Positions 3,035 through 62,159 of a DNA stretch of 64,000 nucleotides are shown piece after piece (within the stretch, counting starts at the first letter, position 1; every line of letters starts with the position of its first letter). The position numbers were made by a program, and so were the translations under genes. Below the pieces are notes generated by a model. It made no database searches. It was not told the origin of the DNA and saw only the letters and a program-made list of their open reading frames with translations. The DNA is from Pirellula sp. (GTDB lineage: Bacteria; Planctomycetota; Planctomycetia; Pirellulales; Pirellulaceae), in NCBI GenBank assembly GCA_043744075.1, contig JAYTVL010000118.1, forward strand, positions 9,191 through 73,190. Direction: 5' to 3'.

Positions 3035-4537
3035 ATGAACAGGACCATTCGAGGCAGGTTTCATTTTTGGTCAGTTCCCTGTTATTGCATGTGCATTATC
3101 CTTGTTCTGACTTTGACTATCCCACCTTCGGTTGGAAATGCATGGCAGATAAGTGACGCCCCTACAGTTACGCTGCGGTTTGGAATGGAGATCAAACCTC
3201 ACTCACTTGGAGTCGAAGTCGCAGATATCAAGTCCGATCGGGCCGTGAGCAAGAAACTGCATAAGGGGGATATCCTTCGCTCATACGAACTAGTGAGCAA
3301 TCAAGGCGTTAGCCATCGGATTACCAGCGGCCTCACCATCGATCAACTCAAGGAAGCCCTTGCACGTGGAGAAACGCTCTTAATTAGCCTTCTAAGGCGT
3401 AAGGATAGCGGCGAATCTGCCTTCGACGCGATTCAAGTAATTATAGATGCTTCGGATTTGATGCCCCCGCAAACGGTTGAGCATTCGAAAGCTTACAGGT
3501 CTACGTTTACCGTAGGTGAGCCCGAACCCGCTCCTCCTAAATCAGTGGTTTTGGTACCTGTTTTTTATGCAACCGATCGAATGCTAGAGAGCAATGAGTA
3601 TTCCGGAAACCGCGATAACCAATCCCCAAACCCAATCAAGTACGGTGCGTGTGTTGTCTCGATACCGCCAACGCACATTAGGGGACAACTCGAAGGACCT
3701 TCGTTTTGGCGTCTTGAGTTCATGGAGAACCCCACAAAGCACATTGTTCTGCGAACAGTCAGCCAAATTGGAAAGGATGCAACTTTTCAAGCGATCGCTG
3801 CCCAATTCGAGTCTCTTCCGACGATACCTCGTAAACGTGTTCTCGTATTTGTGCATGGTTACAACGTAGCGTTTGACGAAGCCGCTCGAAGAGCCGCACA
3901 AATGCACTACGATTTGCCTTTTCCAGGGGTAACTATGATCTATTCTTGGCCCTCCGACGGAACGATTAGAGGGTACGTTGCGGACCTTTCCGATGTCGAT
4001 TGGTCTGTTCCCCACATGAAGGCCTTTCTTGCTGACCTTGAAAAGCAGCAAGTCGATGATATTTATCTGGTAGCACACAGTATGGGAAATCGAGGCCTTA
4101 CCAAGGCCCTTGTCGAGCTAAAACGCGATGGAGCTGGCAAAAAGATCAAAGAACTGATCTTGGCCGCAGCTGACGTGGATGCAGACGTGTTTACGACAGA
4201 AATCGCTCCGGTGTTGGCAAACATTGCTCCTGCAACTGTCTATGTGTCTTCCTCGGACCTTGCATTATGGAGTTCAGAGACACTTTCAAGTACCCCTCGT
4301 GTTGGCGAGATTCGTGATGGCGAACCAACAATCCCAAGTACTCTGCGCTTGAATGTGATCGACGTCAGTACCGTGAAGTCCGACTTTGTCGGGCATTCAG
4401 CGTACGGTAGTGCCTCGGTCATTACTGATATTTCCAATGTCATTTCGGGAAGACCGTTACCACGGGACTTTCTGAAGTCAGTTGTTGGATCAAAAGGTCC
4501 GTATTACGAGTTTGTATCGACAAGCGAGTTGCCCTAA
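3035..4537 (+). CDS. DUF900-type alpha/beta hydrolase (esterase/lipase) with N-terminal signal and PDZ-like region
   Basis: VFYATDR, VFVHGYNV, YSWPS, nucleophile elbow AHSMGNR, GHSAY. N-terminal hydrophobic segment and GMEIK...GVEV...LHKGDIL PDZ-like stretch. Confidence 0.85.
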   Translation: MNRTIRGRFHFWSVPCYCMCIILVLTLTIPPSVGNAWQISDAPTVTLRFGMEIKPHSLGVEVADIKSDRAVSKKLHKGDILRSYELVSNQGVSHRITSGLTIDQLKEALARGETLLISLLRRKDSGESAFDAIQVIIDASDLMPPQTVEHSKAYRSTFTVGEPEPAPPKSVVLVPVFYATDRMLESNEYSGNRDNQSPNPIKYGACVVSIPPTHIRGQLEGPSFWRLEFMENPTKHIVLRTVSQIGKDATFQAIAAQFESLPTIPRKRVLVFVHGYNVAFDEAARRAAQMHYDLPFPGVTMIYSWPSDGTIRGYVADLSDVDWSVPHMKAFLADLEKQQVDDIYLVAHSMGNRGLTKALVELKRDGAGKKIKELILAAADVDADVFTTEIAPVLANIAPATVYVSSSDLALWSSETLSSTPRVGEIRDGEPTIPSTLRLNVIDVSTVKSDFVGHSAYGSASVITDISNVISGRPLPRDFLKSVVGSKGPYYEFVSTSELP

Positions 4538-5602: not shown

Positions 5603-8515
5603 TCAGACAAACAAATGTGGAACTGCAACCATTCCCCTTGTTCCTAAATTATTGTCTAGCGGAACCAGTCGCACGCTTGTGATCGGATTTGCACTCGTGA
5701 AACGACCAAGATTGCTTCCATCCCCATCCGCTGATGCTGCCATCAATAGTGTGGGTTGACTGGACATTGGTATCCACTGGAATGGCCCAACGACTACAGA
5801 TCCACCCGGAATTATCCCGCTTGGCGCATCCTTCACGGCATCGATTAATGCGTTCCAGTCATCCGGCCACAAGGCGTTCCCAATTGCCGTCGACTGGAAT
5901 CCTTGTACCTTCACGTTCATTGCTTGCGAGACTCCCCGATTGGAAACTCGGACATAAGCGAAGTTCTTTTGACCCATGATTGGATCTTGATGCACTGTTC
6001 CGTCGTCCCCTGCTATGCGGTTCCAAACATCTCTTGAATCATCTCCTTCCACAAAATGGTAGTTCCCATCTCGACCATCATTAATGAACACATCGACCTT
6101 CGGTGGATCTCCAACGCGATTTATAGGAGTCTGCCCAACTCCGGGCGGCGTTCGATACGCCCCTTGCATTTCAAACGCCCAGCGAGTTACTTTGCGGAGA
6201 CTTCCGATGAGGGTGTCTTTTCCTTCATATTTAAATATCCCCGTATCTGCCTGCATCATGAGGTCTGCAAATCCCTCTGGCTTGGCCGGGTTATTGGCAG
6301 GAGACATCAGCCCGATTGCCTTAATGATAAGGAATACGACGTACTGTGCAGCAAAGTCTTGTTGCTTCTTGTCGTCTGAATCTCCCCCGGCCGCTTGGTA
6401 GATTCGAAAAAGGGAAGAAGAAAGCATTTGCTCAGCTACGTACCCTGCACTGTCGTTGCCGAAAAAAGGTTCGTACGATGGTCCGTACCAGGCAAGACTA
6501 CTTACCGCTCTTTGGTGGCTGCGACCAATTTGCACCCATGGAAACGTAAGGTTTCGTGGGCTTTGACTGCCCGCGTCGTTTAGGATAGCCGCCATGGCAT
6601 CTCCTGCGCTGTGGGCAAACTTGAAATTTGCTGAGCCTACGTTATCCCACAATAGTGCATGGCCAAATTCGTGGAGAACTACTCGCCAATCTGCGGCCAT
6701 TCCTACAGATGTATTTAAAGCAGCTAGCGCGAACCGAAATCCATCCGATCTAGGGGGGAGCGAAAAACCCGGCGCTGATGCGTTAACGCTGTTTGCGGAC
6801 GGAAAGCCTACTCGATGGTCCACTCGTACAGGAAACGTCGTACCATCGAAGTACGACTTTACATTGATGCCAAAACCTTCAAGTAGGCGAAACAGCCTAT
6901 CGCAATTGTGGTAAGCGTTCACTGCCCCAAAATCGTTTGTCGTCACGGAAAAACGAAAGTCCCCCGGCACAGGTGAACTCGGTATCGCTGGACTCGGAGC
7001 ACTTACGTTGACCAAGCGAACAAATTCTCCATCTAGCGATTGATTTGCACCAAATGAAGCTTGGGTTAACCCGACTAAGGACACGAGATCGCGATGTCGA
7101 TCCAAGTCTTGCGTGCTACCTGCTGGACCTGGCCCAGCAGATCCCAGTTTTGTTTTTGGGTCCTTCAAGTACACCCAAGCTAGAGACGCCTTCGGGTCAA
7201 CTACCGAAACAGCACGATCTGGACTATCAACTGTGACGAAACCCGCGTCCCCAGCAAACATGCGCTCCGAACTATTCTCTCCCACAAACAAACACTGGTC
7301 GCTTGTCACTCCAGCCAACGCAGCCGAATTCTCAAAAATTACTTTGCTGTTCTTGGTCCCGAATACTAACAAGTCTTGAGCGAGAAAAGCCATGATCCCC
7401 GTGTCTTGCATCAACGACTTAATCAAGTTCGGGTTGAATGGACCGGGATCAGAGATGATCCCTACCCGAAGTTGCTTTTCAAACAGTTCTTTTACGACTT
7501 CCATCGCTGAGGGAAAGATCTCGATCTTGTTGAGCTGACCTCCACTAACAACTGCCTTACCCAAGGTATCCCCAATGTCGAAAAAAACTACCGTAGGCGT
7601 AGTAGTAGTAGCATTGGTGAGCCCCGTCAGACTTGTGTTTGCAGCAGGCCCTCCAAGCTTCGCCTTTGCCGCTGGATCGAATGCGGCCCCTTGGATCTCA
7701 TGCATCACCGGTTCTCGATCGCAGCCTTCTAGGGACCTTAGCATTAATACGCTACTAGTTTCCGGTTCAATCAATGCTAACCAACTTGATTCTCCGCGAT
7801 TCGTTGAATGTATCGTGAATTCCACGGCCAAAACAACAAAACTCTCACCTTCCCCGATCTCGTCAGCAACTACGGGTAAAGCAAATGGAATTCTTTCTGC
7901 AATATTCCCCAGTGGACCCGCAGAGTGTATTTCAAGGCGTCCTTTGGCTCTGTATTGGTACACAAACTGCTTCGAGTTATGTAACTGAATGCGGTAACGC
8001 CCAGGAATCGAAAAGATCCCGCGAATAGCGTCGCTGTCTATGTGGGTCTCCGTAAAATTGGTTTTATTACTCTCAGACTTTCTTTTGAGATTCTTTTTGA
8101 CCGTACTTTGGGAGCCCACGACCTGCATCGGGTTTTCTTCCACTTGCACCACTACTCCAGATTCCCATACAGGAATTCCATCAAGATTTTGGCTGTACGT
8201 CACGCGAGAATTGCCCATCACCGACTTTTCGGATTCAAAGATGAGCTGCTCACCGGACTGCGTATTGCGGGAACGGGCTCGCCCATCAGTTCCAGTAGCA
8301 ACCAGCATCTCTTGGTTCAATCCAAATGCAGGTAGAGCTTCACTGAGATACGCATCCGCAATCACGCGAGCGGATACCACAGCGTTTCCGGCACGCTCAT
8401 GAAAATGTGTTGCGTCACTTTTCAGCCGAAAAGGACTCTCGACGTGATTGAGTTGTGTGACATTTCCCTTTTCGTCAAAAATCTTGGAGGAAGTATCTAG
8501 TTGAAATGAACCCAT
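5603..8515 (-). CDS. Fungalysin/thermolysin-like (M36/M4) metalloprotease with propeptide and inserted HAD-like domain
   Basis: FTP-like propeptide (VTYSQNLDGIPVWESGVVV), NAYH..D, VVLHEFGHALL. Internal FFDIGDTLG...IISDPG...FVGEN HAD motifs; C-terminal beta domain (DVWNR...HQDP...AYVRVSNRG). Start set at ATG 8515 (AAAGGA upstream). Confidence 0.8.
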   Translation of the reverse strand: MGSFQLDTSSKIFDEKGNVTQLNHVESPFRLKSDATHFHERAGNAVVSARVIADAYLSEALPAFGLNQEMLVATGTDGRARSRNTQSGEQLIFESEKSVMGNSRVTYSQNLDGIPVWESGVVVQVEENPMQVVGSQSTVKKNLKRKSESNKTNFTETHIDSDAIRGIFSIPGRYRIQLHNSKQFVYQYRAKGRLEIHSAGPLGNIAERIPFALPVVADEIGEGESFVVLAVEFTIHSTNRGESSWLALIEPETSSVLMLRSLEGCDREPVMHEIQGAAFDPAAKAKLGGPAANTSLTGLTNATTTTPTVVFFDIGDTLGKAVVSGGQLNKIEIFPSAMEVVKELFEKQLRVGIISDPGPFNPNLIKSLMQDTGIMAFLAQDLLVFGTKNSKVIFENSAALAGVTSDQCLFVGENSSERMFAGDAGFVTVDSPDRAVSVVDPKASLAWVYLKDPKTKLGSAGPGPAGSTQDLDRHRDLVSLVGLTQASFGANQSLDGEFVRLVNVSAPSPAIPSSPVPGDFRFSVTTNDFGAVNAYHNCDRLFRLLEGFGINVKSYFDGTTFPVRVDHRVGFPSANSVNASAPGFSLPPRSDGFRFALAALNTSVGMAADWRVVLHEFGHALLWDNVGSANFKFAHSAGDAMAAILNDAGSQSPRNLTFPWVQIGRSHQRAVSSLAWYGPSYEPFFGNDSAGYVAEQMLSSSLFRIYQAAGGDSDDKKQQDFAAQYVVFLIIKAIGLMSPANNPAKPEGFADLMMQADTGIFKYEGKDTLIGSLRKVTRWAFEMQGAYRTPPGVGQTPINRVGDPPKVDVFINDGRDGNYHFVEGDDSRDVWNRIAGDDGTVHQDPIMGQKNFAYVRVSNRGVSQAMNVKVQGFQSTAIGNALWPDDWNALIDAVKDAPSGIIPGGSVVVGPFQWIPMSSQPTLLMAASADGDGSNLGRFTSANPITSVRLVPLDNNLGTRGMVAVPHLFV

Positions 8516-58708: not shown

Positions 58709-59401
58709 TCATATGGCTGCCTCCGCAAGCTCACTTGTAACTTCGTATACCTTGACCGGCTTTCGCCTTAGCCCAAGTTTGGAATATGGTACGGGCTCAA
58801 AGCCATGTGGCTGTCGCATTTTGTTTACCATTCGGGCAAGAATTAGGATCTGGCGGCGAATCGGGGCATACCGAGCATAGGGTAGTTTCCGAAACTCAGA
58901 CGCCAGTGCTTCAGCCGTTCGATGTGGGGCAAGACTTTCAAAAAACGCTTTGAGTTGCACGTACGTCTTGCCCTCGATTCGGACATGGGCACAGAATCGA
59001 TCGGCCGTTCTGCCAGCTTCTTGAACGCCCGCTCTTCGGTACGAGATCGAGTAATCCCCGAGCCTGATCGAATGGCGCCTCGCATCTTTTAGCGATTCTT
59101 TCTCCCCGCCTTGAGAGGCCGGAAGTTTGATTTTGTGATGCCCATCACTGGCCATAATGATGAACCAGTTGCCGCACCGTAAGTAGTGGGCGTTAGCCAA
59201 TCCTGCCTTCTTCCTTCTTCGTCTCTCCCATTCGCTAACGTCAATTTGGTACTTCTCGATAAGTTTCGAATCGATTGACTCAGCCGCTTTCCCCTCTGGG
59301 ATTCGCCCGGTAACAAACCAGTAAAATCCGTGTCTCAGGTAACTTGCGGCTATCAACTGGATCGCGCCTTCCATACTCGCTGCTCGATAAAGGTATGCCA
59401 T
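58709..59401 (-). CDS. Conserved-looking hypothetical basic protein downstream of the structured RNA locus
   Basis: AGGAGG RBS before ATG 59401; Arg/Lys/aromatic rich (SYLRHGFYWFVTGRIP, KY.I..S...R.RRKKAGLAN.HYLR). Confidence 0.75.
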   Translation of the reverse strand: MAYLYRAASMEGAIQLIAASYLRHGFYWFVTGRIPEGKAAESIDSKLIEKYQIDVSEWERRRRKKAGLANAHYLRCGNWFIIMASDGHHKIKLPASQGGEKESLKDARRHSIRLGDYSISYRRAGVQEAGRTADRFCAHVRIEGKTYVQLKAFFESLAPHRTAEALASEFRKLPYARYAPIRRQILILARMVNKMRQPHGFEPVPYSKLGLRRKPVKVYEVTSELAEAAI

Positions 59402-59829
59402 ATTCCTCCTAAAGAAATTCCGTTTCAAAAAATGGACGTTGATTCGTAGTGGCAAATGCCCCTACTCGCTCATACGTCCAAAGCGATACCTTGACTGACA
59501 AACAGGCTCTCTGCCGTTTGTGCGATTAACCTTGCGAAACCAAACAAAGGTCTCAAAGCAAAGAACCACACTTGCGACTTCGAACAACGCGGACTGCTAT
59601 GCTTTATTGCAATGCACCGCTTTCTACAGTGCATGTATGCAATTCATAGTAGCCGCTTTTGAAAACCTTCGGCAATCGCTAACGCGTCCGCAAGACGCAA
59701 CTATAGCGATCGCCGTCAGACACGCTGTTTCAAGTAAAATGCTCGCCAAAGCTTTTCACCTCAAACCGCTTGCTGTTGCCAACCACGGCCACCGAAAACG
59801 GGAGGAAGAACATATCGCTAATCGCGATC

Positions 59830-61020
59830 GTCCTCCGCCCTACGGTGTACGTTCATGGTCGGGGCTTAAAGTGCCCCTCGCCTCTTTCGTTCTCACTCCC
59901 CATGGACATCACTCCAAAGGTGCAAACGTGAACGAGTCGTGACTGCCTTGCCACGCACCTTCTACTACCTTGGACTGGTAGTGCCGGTGTCTTGCCCTTC
60001 GACAAGATCATCGCCCTCCTCCCGGAGGCTTCTACTTAAGGCACGCTCCCACTCATGCGGCATTTCAATCACCGAACTTGACCGTCGTTCGGCACCGAGG
60101 TTGCGATCCCCGGCAGCCACAGAGTTTCCTGCGTTAGCTAATCACTTCACTACTAGAGTCACGTCGTTAGAAGGAATTACCCTTCGATCCACAGACAGTA
60201 TGTGCTACCTTCCGGTAAGCCATAGTTTCCAATCGACCTTGTTCAAGCCGATTGATTTCCCGATGCGAAAGCAGAAGCTCTCGGTATCCGATGGTCCTAG
60301 TCCTTGGACCGTCTGTAGTGGATTGGTCACGGTTTGGCACCGTCTCTCTAGTGATTTACTGGCAAGCTCTATCCGTACTTATTTGGATTGGAGCCTTTCA
60401 TAGTTGAGCTTTTTGCCGTCGGTCTTTTATTCCGATCGCCGGAGTGGCAACTCCGGTATGGCCTGTTACCAGGCTCATAGCTCCCTACGCCAGCCGTGTT
60501 GAAGGAACCTTGGTAGAACCAAGGCCCACAACCCCTTGAGAGGGTTCAACCCCACGGACGGGATTACGCATATCCATGCTTCACCCGTTTTGTGATTAGC
60601 GGCTTGGTACTTGGATCAAAGTCCTAAGCACTAAGTCTTTCCGCATCGCCCGTATTCAATTTGAGAAACAACAGATTGTTATAGGATAGAACGACAGGAT
60701 TACTTCTTAGGCCACTTCTCACTTACAACGTGAGCTTGTGGCCAAGAGATTACTCTGTCGAGCCTCCTTCGCACTGGACGAACCACTCTCGTGGTATCCA
60801 GCGCTAAGGGCGGCGGGATGGTCAAAATTGACCAAAATGAAGGGAGCTACCCTTCGCTTCTTAGCTCGGCTGATAAGACCAAGTTTACCGAAGCCCGCCA
60901 CGCCCGACCATGAACGTCAACTTCGTCTGCCTTAGCCAGTGGAGTATTTCCATTCTGGTTTACCGACAAACTCGCTTTACGCTAAAACTGACGTCCGGCG
61001 ATTACTCGCCTGTGGTTTAC
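59830..61020 (-). ncRNA. Candidate large ornate structured ncRNA (about 1.2 kb; GOLLD/ROOL-class by analogy, unverified)
   Basis: At least 15 hairpins; GNRA loops (GTAA at 60997-61010 and 60461-74, GAGA at 60782-95); G-U pairs favour the minus strand; 15-bp perfect long-range helix 60903-17/59849-63; no credible ORF. Boundaries approximate. Confidence 0.65.
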
Positions 61021-61166
61021 GTCCTATCACGCATTTCACAAAAAACAAAGCAAAGTAAAGTTTATACTTCCGAAGCTGCTTAGGTGTGCTAGACCGATGC
61101 GGGTTCGGGCAAAGACAGAATCTGTGCTCGCCTACGAGCTACATTACTCTTGACAGCGCCTGGAGC

Positions 61167-62159
61167 TTAATTGATTGCTATAGCTAAAACCTTTCCAAGG
61201 CGTACACCGCCCGCGAGCATGCGTTGTTGTGCAGAATTACCACCGCTCTTGAGGTAGCTCTCACTACAGACGACGGGTATATCTTGAGTGTTTGCAATCA
61301 GTTGCGCCCGTATCTCTTGCGAATAGGCAAGCGAAGATGCAATTTCGAGGCTCTCGGTCAACCAATCCTCTTCGTTCATCGACAAACTCTCTGTGGGATC
61401 GTGCTCACCAATAAGTTGAAGTGCACGGTTTCTCGCCGTACGCCACTTAATGTCATTTCCTGGGAATTGATCCCATAAGCTATGCAGATTACCTCTCTGT
61501 TTCGTTTTTATCGAATTTCCGCCTCTGTCGCCTCGTTTGAATAACGTCTCCGAATATAACGAAACTGAGTGAAGGGGCTGATGGATGTCGCCAACGGTAT
61601 GGCATAGCCAAGTTATCATTAAAGCCTTGTTTGCATCTGTGGCGTTTACGTCACGTAGGACAGACCGAGATTTTCGGATAGCCTGAACAATGTTCATGTC
61701 TTCGACAATTGCAGCCGGAGGATGCAGGCTTACGTTCGCAGTTAGCTTTCCGGCAAAGAAATGCACATCGGATTCTTGAAGAAAAACTGGGAGGTTAATG
61801 TAATGCCAAGAGCCATGATGGTAGGTCGCCTTAAGTTCGCCACGGAAGCCTCGCGTGATGTCCGGCCAAATCGATGCTTGCTGGAGCATCCACTCATGCC
61901 TTTCGGTTTCGTTCGTGATTTCCTTTTCTTTGGCAAGGATCGTTTCAAAATCCTCAGCAAATCTTGGATGGTTCTTAAGTAGCCCAACAAATTTTCTTCG
62001 TTGGACTTCATTCAACTGCCTGAATGCTATCGACGCAATAATACGATGCCCAGCCGAACTCCATGCACATGCATTTGGGGCAAGCATCAGCACGAGTAGA
62101 AAACTGACGACCAAGGCGCGAGAGCAGAATCGACTCCCGTATCTTTGGCAACGTTTCAT
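61167..62159 (-). CDS. S1/P1 nuclease (secreted)
   Basis: Signal peptide, then mature W-SSAGH; ASIWPD; WHYIN; H.VGDIHQPLH; GDRGGN; NLHSLWD; LAGG.RL. Confidence 0.95.
   Translation of the reverse strand: MKRCQRYGSRFCSRALVVSFLLVLMLAPNACAWSSAGHRIIASIAFRQLNEVQRRKFVGLLKNHPRFAEDFETILAKEKEITNETERHEWMLQQASIWPDITRGFRGELKATYHHGSWHYINLPVFLQESDVHFFAGKLTANVSLHPPAAIVEDMNIVQAIRKSRSVLRDVNATDANKALMITWLCHTVGDIHQPLHSVSLYSETLFKRGDRGGNSIKTKQRGNLHSLWDQFPGNDIKWRTARNRALQLIGEHDPTESLSMNEEDWLTESLEIASSLAYSQEIRAQLIANTQDIPVVCSESYLKSGGNSAQQRMLAGGVRLGKVLAIAIN

Follow-up and report, generated by a model that had tools for sequence, protein, structure and literature searches.

The locus raises the question of why two short segments more than 1 kb apart, in a gap free of open reading frames, are perfectly complementary to each other. 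An inverted-repeat search of the window (the whole 64-kb stretch of DNA that was analysed) found 59849-59863 (ACGTTCATGGTCGGG) to be 100% complementary over 15 nt to 60903-60917 (CCCGACCATGAACGT), with 1039 nt between the arms. The initial annotation had reported this match, correctly and at the same coordinates, and had read it as a helix that builds an RNP/RNA cage and could act as a conformational switch. The best overall explanation, with a probability of roughly 0.85, is that the match forms the terminal helix, here called the clamp, of a ~1.07-kb circularly permuted (CP) group II ribozyme encoded on the minus strand (60917-59849 plus a leader). The locus is a divergent planctomycete branch of the CP group II ribozymes and lies in a mobile element. 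The ribozyme takes the place of the proposed cage, to which no evidence pointed.

The terminal helix

The window holds only two perfect inverted matches of at least 15 nt with arms 200-2000 nt apart (59849/60903 and 20592/20830), and shuffling the window 40 times gave a mean of 0.075 such matches. The analytic expectation for the 1.7-kb ORF-free gap is 0.0013, and at about 0.001 expected matches the earlier judgement that chance is an unlikely source stands. The 5' and 3' labels of the arms had been given on the plus strand; the RNA is the minus strand, so the 5' arm is 60917-60903. The two strands of the clamp are:

60903-60917, minus strand: 5' strand of the clamp helix, ACGUUCAUGGUCGGG in RNA sense; partner 59849-59863, with two-sided changes at 14-15 of the 15 pairs
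59849-59863, minus strand: 3' strand of the clamp helix, CCCGACCAUGAACGU in RNA sense; 48 G.U against 7 A.C in minus-strand sense

Covariation was assessed in 44 homologs, all from Planctomycetota. The arm sequences diverge among them yet complementarity is kept, and RNAduplex placed a 13-19-bp duplex of quite different sequence at the corresponding position in 43 of the 44. In a first alignment, double changes occur at all 15 pairs, and the paired fraction of the cells is 86.7%, where slid controls reach 33-44%. The clamp has a covariation score of 0.583, compared with 0.06-0.12 for these controls, and none of 500 shuffles reached it. A second alignment reproduces this result; across the analyses 14-15 of the 15 pairs are doubly changed and ~90% of the cells are paired (33-52% in slid controls). 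The clamp pairing is under selection, and the clamp is an evolutionarily maintained, real helix. The search for compensatory substitutions in homologs had been suggested together with the original observation. Such changes are present and the arms are co-conserved, and the long-range helix proposed there does close over 1 kb of a single structured RNA.

The excess of G.U over A.C pairs in the clamp (48 vs 7) identifies the minus strand as the folding strand. Over the whole RNA, ~36 helices are 94% paired when read as the minus strand and 84% when read as the plus strand.

The variation of the arms also bears on whether they are the terminal inverted repeats of a non-autonomous, MITE-like DNA transposon with the interior as its cargo. 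DNA transposons typically end in perfect inverted termini, and some genomes have several copies of the present element, which sits on plasmid- or ICE-like DNA. However, the arms vary freely while staying complementary, with G.U above A.C on one strand, which indicates selection on a folded single strand and not on a protein-bound DNA end. Conservation also passes both arms, through the leader to ~61030 on one side and into a spacer block at 59790-59615 on the other. The interval has no ORF, and neither a transposase nor a target-site duplication was seen, as first reported. No empty site was found, and the shorter copies in the same genome are internally deleted fragments instead of clean excisions. 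The transposon reading is largely refuted and retains a very small probability, in agreement with the earlier view that a transposon end is unlikely.

Group II D5-D6 and the D1-D3-like domains

The Rfam model of group II D5-D6 (RF00029) matches 60806-60681 on the minus strand over the full model length with 42.5 bits (E 1.5e-7), where the gathering score is 40. A distant family member scores 42.1 bits, which is also above the gathering score. The match was recovered only with a 171-nt search segment; Rfam scans of the whole window and of an 8-kb segment returned no match, and long-window scans can miss CP group II elements such as this one. The domains are:

60771-60804, minus strand: Domain 5 (D5), 34 nt; helices of 9 bp and 5 bp are separated by a UC bulge, and the loop is GAGA
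60681-60767, minus strand: Domain 6 (D6); an inserted hairpin varies, and a conserved internal loop carries GUAAUCC twice, once on each side
60652-60680, minus strand: linker of 29 nt between splice sites placed by analogy; predicted small RNA circle
60640-60651, minus strand: 5' splice-site-like block GGGCGAUGCGGA, conserved in the family; putative analog of GUGYG and the start of D1
60128-60648, minus strand: D1-like domain, closed by 60648-60642/60133-60128; assigned by position, by RNAalifold on 44 sequences and by per-helix covariation
60051-60125, minus strand: D2-like domain, assigned by position and RNAalifold covariation
60050-60043, minus strand: purine-rich joiner that precedes the D3-like domain
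59880-60042, minus strand: D3-like domain, assigned by position and RNAalifold covariation

D5 (60804-60771) has CGC as its catalytic triad, and most homologs in the family alignment have AGC. D6 has a bulged branch-point A at 60687 and a 3' splice-site-like UAU that ends at 60681. The D5 architecture, the bulged A and the D6 sequence GUUCU-A-UCCnAU are conserved across the family. The linker is very variable in length among homologs. Its 5' splice-site boundary is GGGCG, the same as in Thermus pTT8, and the GGGCGAnnCGGACA block is also found after D6 in the Thermus pTT8 CP group II RNA. D5-D6 are followed by ~830 nt of covarying structure, which forms three multi-helix domains in the order expected for D1-, D2- and D3-like domains; the Rfam models for D1-D4 gave no match in 59830-60700.

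The order of the domains is permuted. D5 begins ~100 nt past the clamp 5' arm, and the clamp encloses D5-D6 and the D1-D3-like domains alike. Upstream of the RNA there is no room for D1-D4, with a nuclease gene ending at 61167. There is no ORF inside the RNA (11-24 stops per frame), and a six-frame tblastn comparison with homologs showed no preferred frame across the interval. These two results rule out a protein-coding gap. A tRNA/tmRNA scan found none.

The three-way junction around the clamp

A second long-range helix, here called the basal helix, lies inside the clamp, and a local arm lies between the two on the 5' side. These elements and the conserved flanks are:

60918-61030, minus strand: conserved 5' leader, with a hairpin (60958-60936) and the motif CCGG(A/U)CGUCA
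60812-60899, minus strand: local arm between the clamp 5' arm and the basal helix, with the helix 60899-60894/60817-60812 around two hairpins
60892-60858 and 60854-60838, minus strand: the two hairpins inside that helix
60805-60811, minus strand: basal long-range helix, strand GCCCUUA, directly 5' of D5; partner 59873-59879
59873-59879, minus strand: basal long-range helix, strand GAGGGGC, directly 3' of the D3-like domain; partner 60811-60805
59872-59864, minus strand: 9-nt linker from the 3' strand of the basal helix to the clamp 3' arm
59615-59790, minus strand: conserved non-coding block between the ribozyme and the acpG-like gene

The 7-bp basal helix is 95% paired in the second alignment, with 31 G.U and 0 A.C pairs. 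It shows compensatory changes from GCCC/GGGC to GCUC/GAGC and to GCCCG/CGGGC. The helix of the local arm takes the forms GGCGGG/CCCGCC, CAGCG/CGCUG, CCAGUCAC/GUGACUGG, CAUCCAC/GUGGAUG and others across the homologs. The clamp meets the basal helix and the local arm in a three-way junction. The junction probably occupies the position of D4 and would thereby rejoin the permuted ends. Outside the clamp, a fragment in the same genome is 90% identical over 60869-61030, and a promoter scan found no sigma-70-like site.

The clamp could alternatively be one state of a conformational switch that toggles the ribozyme between inactive and active forms, through either an upstream ACGUCA stem or a local hairpin with the C-run of the 3' arm. 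The sequences of the upstream stem, ACGTCA (60914-60919) and TGACGT (60989-60994), are present as annotated; the 5' arm of the clamp would pair with ACGUCA at 60994-60989. ACGUCA and UGACGU are complementary in the RNA, and a related 5-bp CGUCA/UGAYG pairing is possible in most homologs. However, both motifs are nearly invariant across the homologs and therefore provide no covariation for or against the stem, while the outer three pairs of the clamp covary with their partners in the 3' arm. The local hairpin GGGGC/GCCCC, between 59879-59873 and the C-run of the 3' arm, can form in 91% of the cells, in competition with the two long-range helices. One clade has GGAG in place of GGGG and, concurrently, CUCC in place of CCCC, across all four G- or C-rich strands. 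The two-sided changes of this hairpin nevertheless affect only 2 of its 5 pairs and come essentially from one clade. At 0.186, the hairpin's covariation score lies near the shuffled mean (0.146) and one slid control (0.143), and GAGGGGC has a better-supported partner at 60811-60805. Since its 5' strand covaries with that partner, the local hairpin was demoted as a native structure. The proposed switch is unsupported, and it is considered unlikely.

The duplex could instead serve mainly in processing, as a site for RNase III for instance, and would then fix the mature 5' and 3' termini of the ribozyme and detach it from the acpG mRNA. In rRNA maturation, the two extremities of a long RNA pair to give the RNase III processing stem. 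The clamp, a near-perfect duplex of 13-19 bp formed in the same way, has this classic shape; it is found throughout the family (43/44), and a weak terminator-like hairpin (59828-59814) follows its 3' strand. The helix is, however, part of a covarying three-way junction that abuts D5, which suggests an architectural role, and there is little probability that processing is its main function. The roles of processing signal and structural clamp are compatible with each other.

From 5' to 3', the RNA runs through the leader, the clamp 5' strand, the local arm with its two hairpins, the basal strand, D5, D6 and the putative 3' splice site. After the 29-nt linker it continues with the putative 5' splice site, the D1-, D2- and D3-like domains, the second basal strand, the 9-nt linker and the clamp 3' strand, followed by a spacer of 450 nt and the acpG-like gene on the same strand. 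The chain of a permuted intron is open at D4, the connection from D3 to D5. The three-way junction in the D4 position may reclose the central wheel and keep the catalytic D5-D6 module docked on the scaffold of D1-D3. If the RNA reacts like the published class, the branch A at 60687 would attack the 5' splice site, before G60651, and the freed 3'-OH would next attack after U60681, at the 3' splice site. A circle of ~29 nt would be released, and the remaining RNA would be branched and in two pieces. These pieces would be kept joined by the 2'-5' branch together with the clamp and basal helices.

The acpG-like gene and the distribution of the family

The gene that follows the ribozyme is:

58709-59401, minus strand: acpG-like gene, 230 aa, directly downstream of the ribozyme on the same strand

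It has this position and orientation in 74 of 76 assessable loci. A single-sequence comparison of the 230-aa protein with AcpG was not significant, while hhalign of the planctomycete protein alignment against the AcpG alignment gave 89.7% (E 1.8e-6, 151 columns) and included the R(H/D)GY..W motif. The profile match indicates that the protein is a remote homolog of AcpG. The planctomycete proteins are a tight family of their own, with 317 members at an E of at most 1e-5. Sequence searches of Pfam, NCBIfam, PHROG and PDB with the 230-aa protein found no match, and RVT and GIIM Pfam matches are absent. A first AlphaFold model (21 sequences, pLDDT 74) had no useful Foldseek match. With an alignment of 101 sequences the pLDDT rose to 91, and the best Foldseek matches of this model are retron reverse transcriptases (E 2e-3, low TM-scores), a similarity that is suggestive only. 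A reading as an HUH endonuclease, from HAH and YSISY motifs in the protein, was dropped as it had no family or fold support.

The family has 245 protein-anchored loci in species-representative genomes, and 26 out of 301 genomes in the same order contain a DNA match. Its cultured carriers include Novipirellula rosea JCM 17759 and Stieleria mannarensis JC639. A cyanobacterial origin had been considered from a Calothrix plasmid match and HIP1-like GCGATCGC motifs. It was ruled out, since every protein homolog and each of 80 loci came from Planctomycetota.

The neighbours of the locus are ArdC, RadC and exonuclease genes, which are typical of the leading regions of plasmids and ICEs. This setting would suit a structure of single-stranded DNA instead of RNA, an ssDNA promoter or origin that folds while the leading region is transferred by conjugation; G.T wobbles would be tolerated there too. 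The folded strand, however, has a full group II D5-D6 above the Rfam threshold, in the same sense as the downstream gene, and ~36 covarying helices laid out as intron domains exceed what an ssDNA promoter needs. A function in single-stranded DNA is therefore highly improbable, and the CP group II ribozyme remains the preferred reading.

Possible origin and significance

The layout of the ribozyme and its gene may indicate how the permutation arose. The clamp could be the D4 stem, now opened, of an ancestral group II intron that carried an ORF, with acpG as a remnant of the intron's maturase. Cutting such an intron after the ORF and before the D4 3' strand results in the order seen here. It would read D4 3' strand, D5, D6, splice sites, D1-D3, D4 5' strand and protein gene, all on the same strand. 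This origin is possible but doubtful as a whole, and it is only weakly suggested that acpG is the shrunken, polymerase-dead descendant of an intron-encoded reverse transcriptase/maturase. If the origin is correct, AcpG would have the three-way junction at D4 as its binding site, and the layout ancestral to all CP group II elements would survive in the planctomycete clade. The constant setting with ArdC, RadC and exonuclease genes would then suggest a function in the establishment of plasmid or ICE DNA on entry.

The locus belongs to a large planctomycete branch of CP group II ribozymes that is apparently so far unreported. This branch is unusually regular, with a universal clamp at the probable D4 position, D5-D6 that score as canonical and a partner gene fixed directly downstream. 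This regularity makes it possible to test how a permuted intron recloses its wheel and holds its two pieces together once it has cut itself, and whether AcpG is a remnant of an intron maturase that recognises the three-way junction. The clamp is a real and functionally constrained structural element of a known kind of RNA, and not a new type of RNA cage.

Comparison with known systems

CP group II ribozymes, also known as "T-large" RNA, were described by Roth, Weinberg, Vanderschuren, Murdock and Breaker (iScience 2021, PMC8637638), and cryo-EM studies of these RNAs are available (NAR 2026, PMC13717195; bioRxiv 10.64898/2025.12.30.696962). Catalysis is proven for the class; it excises a small circle from an internal linker and has the order D5-D6-linker-D1-D2-D3 (PMC8637638). 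Its published features include a P2-D2 loop-loop pseudoknot, and epsilon, zeta, EBS/IBS, J2/3 and a D3 E-loop in D1-D3 (PMC8637638).

Like this class (PMC8637638), the planctomycete element is an ORF-less RNA of ~0.9-1.1 kb on plasmids and chromosomes. D5-D6 are on the 5' side, followed by the putative 3' splice site, a variable linker, the putative 5' splice site and the D1-D3-like domains. The U-N bulge of D5, the bulged A and conserved internal loop of D6, extra hairpins before D5 (two here) and a nearby gene of the AcpG family are also in common. Homology to the published class is suggested by the order of the domains, by D5-D6 and the block at the 5' splice site, and by AcpG. In contrast, nhmmer with the planctomycete family profile finds nothing in Thermus pTT8, with which only short motifs are common. 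The planctomycete D5-D6 reach the Rfam threshold for canonical group II introns, whereas those of the Thermus RNA do not. In the published class, the 5' and 3' ends are in contact through a P1-loop pseudoknot of narrow distribution ("decent in Thermus"), and D4 is a local stem-loop. The planctomycete branch instead has a terminal helix of 13-19 bp in 43 of 44 homologs, with the basal helix and the side arm, at the putative D4 position. The MFE fold of Thermus pTT8 hints at 5'-3' pairing, which is not evidence for it, and RNAduplex is uninformative on this GC-rich sequence. The acpG gene is nearly always directly downstream on the same strand here, but varies in orientation and distance in the published class (PMC8637638). 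Planctomycetota are not named in the available text and supplements of Roth et al. 2021 (PMC8637638).

Canonical group II introns (RF00029) share the 34-nt D5 with its AGC/CGC triad, G.U wobble, 2-nt bulge and GNRA loop, the D6 branch A, the AY 3' boundary and a central wheel with a long D1. The planctomycete RNA differs in its permuted order, in which D5-D6 come first instead of D1-D6. It also has no internal ORF and no reverse transcriptase, whereas canonical introns encode a protein in D4. A canonical group II intron is ruled out by the permuted order and the absence of an intron-encoded RT/maturase. The splice sites would face each other across a short linker and not lie at the two ends of the intron, so that splicing would be expected to yield a circle plus a branched RNA instead of ligated exons and a lariat.

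The downstream protein resembles the AcpG (TTHC007) family in its length (~230-260 aa), in having no known domain and in being encoded beside CP group II RNAs, although the identity is only ~18-20%. The clamp itself is similar to the processing stems of rRNA precursors and to other terminal closing helices, in which a long duplex is formed by the sequences that flank a large structured RNA. It differs from the rRNA processing stems in being integrated into a junction that adjoins the catalytic domain.

A long-range helix closes the RNA

The initial annotation had singled out two 15-mers (59849-59863 and 60903-60917) as a perfect match and proposed that they form a helix closing the RNA. The inverted-repeat search of the window found them where described, perfectly complementary and with 1039 nt between the arms. 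Both arms of this helix, here called the clamp, lie within an ORF-free gap. The features of the locus are as follows.

59456-61166: ORF-free gap of ~1.7 kb; on the minus strand the S1/P1 nuclease gene is upstream and the 230-aa gene downstream
60917-60903 with 59863-59849, minus strand: clamp, 15 bp
60899-60894/60817-60812, minus strand: closing helix of the local arm, which carries two hairpins
60811-60805 with 59879-59873, minus strand: 7-bp long-range helix
60804-60771, minus strand: D5-type hairpin of 34 nt (9-bp helix, 2-nt bulge, 5-bp helix, GNRA loop)
59401-58709, minus strand: acpG-like gene, 230 aa
55211-56038: ArdC

Only two perfect inverted matches of at least 15 nt with arms 200-2000 nt apart occur in the 64-kb window. 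Shuffled windows have a mean of 0.075 such matches and the expectation inside the ORF-free gap is 0.0013; therefore, the clamp match is real and not a product of chance. The only other perfect inverted matches of at least 15 nt in the window are a 20-nt pair 238 nt apart (20592-20611/20830-20849) and a 16-nt pair ~12.9 kb apart (19865-19880/32781-32796). No coding signal was found in 59800-61000, where each frame has 11-24 stops and six-frame tblastn against homologs scores about equally across frames.

The arms were tested for duplex formation with RNAduplex in a family alignment of 44 sequences, and 43 members have a 13-19-bp duplex at the homologous position. The paired arms differ greatly in sequence among homologs (UUCAUGGUCGGG/CCCGACCAUGAA, UCUCCUGACGGGG/CCCCGUCAGGAGA, AUGUCGCUUCGAC/GUCGAAGCGACAU, UCGAAACGAUUGGAG/CUCCAAUCGUUUGA and UUCGAUGAUGGAG/CUCCAUCAUCGAA). 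In a MAFFT mini-alignment made without fitting to the structure, two-sided changes occur at 15/15 clamp pairs and 86.7% of cells pair, compared with 33-44% in controls in which the 3' partner was shifted by 1-3 columns. Covariation scores are 0.583 for the clamp and 0.06-0.12 for these controls, and no shuffle attains the observed values. A second alignment gives two-sided changes at 14/15 pairs, with 90.7% of cells pairing. This strong covariation supports the proposed closing helix.

Across the homologs, read in the minus-strand sense, the clamp pairs include 48 G.U and 7 A.C combinations, so the folded strand is the minus strand, the sense shared with the flanking genes. With the same asymmetry, the arms cannot be explained as a signal in double-stranded DNA, for instance the ends of a transposon. 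RNAalifold finds ~36 helices across the family, nearly all with compensatory changes; overall, their pairing reaches 94% on the minus strand (11.5% G.U) versus 84% when read on the plus strand.

Identity of the RNA

The hairpin at 60804-60771 reproduces the architecture of domain 5 (D5) of group II introns exactly. It starts with AGC in the family but with CGC in the subclade of the window, and the G.U wobble is kept. The domain that follows terminates in GUUCU-A-UCCnAU, where an AY boundary comes after a bulged branch-point A. In a 171-nt search, RF00029 (group II D5-D6) matches 60806-60681 of the minus strand over the full model with 42.5 bits (gathering score 40, E 1.5e-7), and a distant member of the family, whose arms differ, reaches 42.1 bits. 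Rfam scans of the whole window and of 8 kb reported no match. Since the short search exceeds the gathering score, these misses are a filter effect, which is probably caused by an insertion in D6. Rfam scans of long windows can thus overlook a group II D5-D6 when D6 has an insertion.

D5 starts only ~100 nt past the 5' arm and is followed by ~830 nt of structured RNA. Past D6 come a linker of very variable length, the conserved block GGGCGAnnCGGACA and three large covarying domains, which by position only would be D1-D3. Circularly permuted (CP) group II ribozymes, with the order D5-D6-linker-D1-D2-D3, release the linker as a small circular RNA, and a branched RNA remains (Roth et al. 2021, PMC8637638). 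By analogy, the window locus would have splice sites, a 29-nt circle and catalysis. The RNA is a divergent planctomycete branch of this known ribozyme class, with a known partner gene, and the RNP/RNA cage suggested initially is not supported.

Junction at the RNA ends

Three helices meet at the ends of the RNA: the clamp, the local arm and the 7-bp long-range helix. The closing helix of the local arm covaries (GGCGGG/CCCGCC, CAGCG/CGCUG, CCAGUCAC/GUGACUGG and others). The 7-bp helix is 95% paired with compensatory changes, with 31 G.U and 0 A.C combinations; one of its strands adjoins D5 and the other adjoins the end of the D3-like domain. This three-way junction probably sits at the D4 place of the group II wheel. 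The permuted chain is open at that place, so the three helices would re-close the wheel. After both transesterifications, the junction helices and the 2'-5' branch would be all that still links the D5-D6 and D1-D3 pieces, which may be the role of these helices. Opening a canonical intron just downstream of its D4 ORF would give this layout (D4 3' strand, D5, D6, splice sites, D1-D3, D4 5' strand, protein gene); such an origin is possible but less likely than not.

The 5' arm had also been suggested to act as a conformational switch through an overlapping ACGTCA/TGACGT stem. This stem exists (60914-60919 and 60989-60994, plus strand), but both motifs are almost invariant in the family and therefore give no covariation supporting it; the outer clamp pairs covary with the 3' arm. 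The switch proposal is not supported. A local GGGGC/GCCCC hairpin, formable in 91% of cells, competes with both long-range helices and might conceivably be a folding intermediate or switch. The four G- and C-rich strands have all changed in concert in one clade. The covariation of the hairpin is barely above controls, and a better-supported distant partner exists for its 5' strand.

Partner gene and distribution

In 74 of the 76 loci whose contig permits judgement, the acpG-like gene lies downstream of the RNA and shares its strand. The two exceptions are L093, with a truncated gene, and L071 (Neorhodopirellula pilleata Pla100, NZ_SJPM01000003.1, 4001-4642), with no ribozyme detectable in 4 kb of upstream sequence. 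The protein has no match in Pfam, NCBIfam, PHROG or PDB sequences. Its profile matches that of AcpG (TTHC007), a protein found associated with CP group II RNAs (PMC8637638), with 89.7% probability (E 1.8e-6, 151 columns); the single-sequence comparison is insignificant. An AlphaFold model from a 101-sequence alignment (pLDDT 91, pTM 0.84) has the reverse transcriptases of retrons Eco8 and Eco2 as its best PDB structure matches and telomerase at rank 6, with E 2e-3 or worse and low TM-scores. The protein may have a reverse transcriptase-like fold.

DNA matches to the RNA locus occur in 26 of 301 genomes of the same order and in further classes of the phylum. All protein homologs, and all 80 loci retrieved from species-representative genomes, belong to Planctomycetota, which bears out the initial planctomycete assignment and rejects a cyanobacterial origin. 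The window's own genome has a second full ribozyme-plus-acpG copy on contig C643 (20405-21282; ~70% identity, protein 53%), with clamp arms of different sequence (AAACGAUUGGA...). It also has two fragments (C397, 3439-3638; C69, 5623-5676). The C397 fragment joins window position 60869 directly to 60587; missing from it are D5, D6, the linker, the 5' splice-site block and some of the local arm. Plasmid5 of Calothrix sp. NIES-4101 (AP018278.1) has two partial matches to the D5-D6/D1 part in unannotated DNA (3738-4072 and 5878-6227). Downstream of one is a CDS (2274-2867) whose product, the "hypothetical protein" BAZ36859.1, shares 28% identity with the acpG-like protein; thus, the branch extends beyond Planctomycetota.

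Flanking regions

Between the 3' arm and the start codon of the acpG-like gene is a 450-nt spacer, ~170 nt of which (59615-59790, minus strand) form a conserved non-coding block; stretches such as GUGGUUGGCA, CAGCGUGUCUGACGGCGA and CUACUAUGAAUUGCAU...GCACUGUAGAAAGCGGUGCA are among those conserved. This block may serve as a promoter or operator, bind a protein or be an additional domain of RNA. A weak terminator-like hairpin at 59814-59828 of the minus strand (AUCGCGAUUAGCGAU, then a U-rich tail), ~20 nt past the 3' arm, may terminate transcription of the ribozyme ahead of acpG. The region preceding the 5' arm, 60918-61030 (minus strand), is conserved as well and contains a hairpin that covaries (60958-60936), a UAAGG motif and CCGG(A/U)CGUCA. 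The start of the RNA probably lies well upstream of the clamp; a promoter scan at the locus gave no promoter-like site.

Recurrent neighbors of the module are a DEDDh exonuclease, a 113-aa protein and RadC (28 loci), which in a few cases is fused to ArdC-like domains. A ~420-aa protein (422 aa) without a Pfam domain is co-oriented upstream of the ribozyme in 27/80 loci, ~3 kb upstream of acpG on the same strand (loci L046-L125).

Comparison with the published class

The yardstick was Thermus thermophilus plasmid pTT8, which carries a published CP group II member. Its RNA and the window RNA have in common the D6 end GGUCUAUCGCAAU and the block GGGCGAccCGGACA after the linker. The pTT8 RNA has no match at all in Rfam; therefore, Rfam 15 has no model for the class, which is why the window RNA looked "unknown". 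For the published class, D4 is reported to be a local stem-loop, and the only 5'-3' contact is a narrowly distributed pseudoknot of the P1 loop with the 3' extremity (PMC8637638), which the deposited alignment labels "decent in Thermus". A long clamp that is present almost universally thus sets the planctomycete branch apart.
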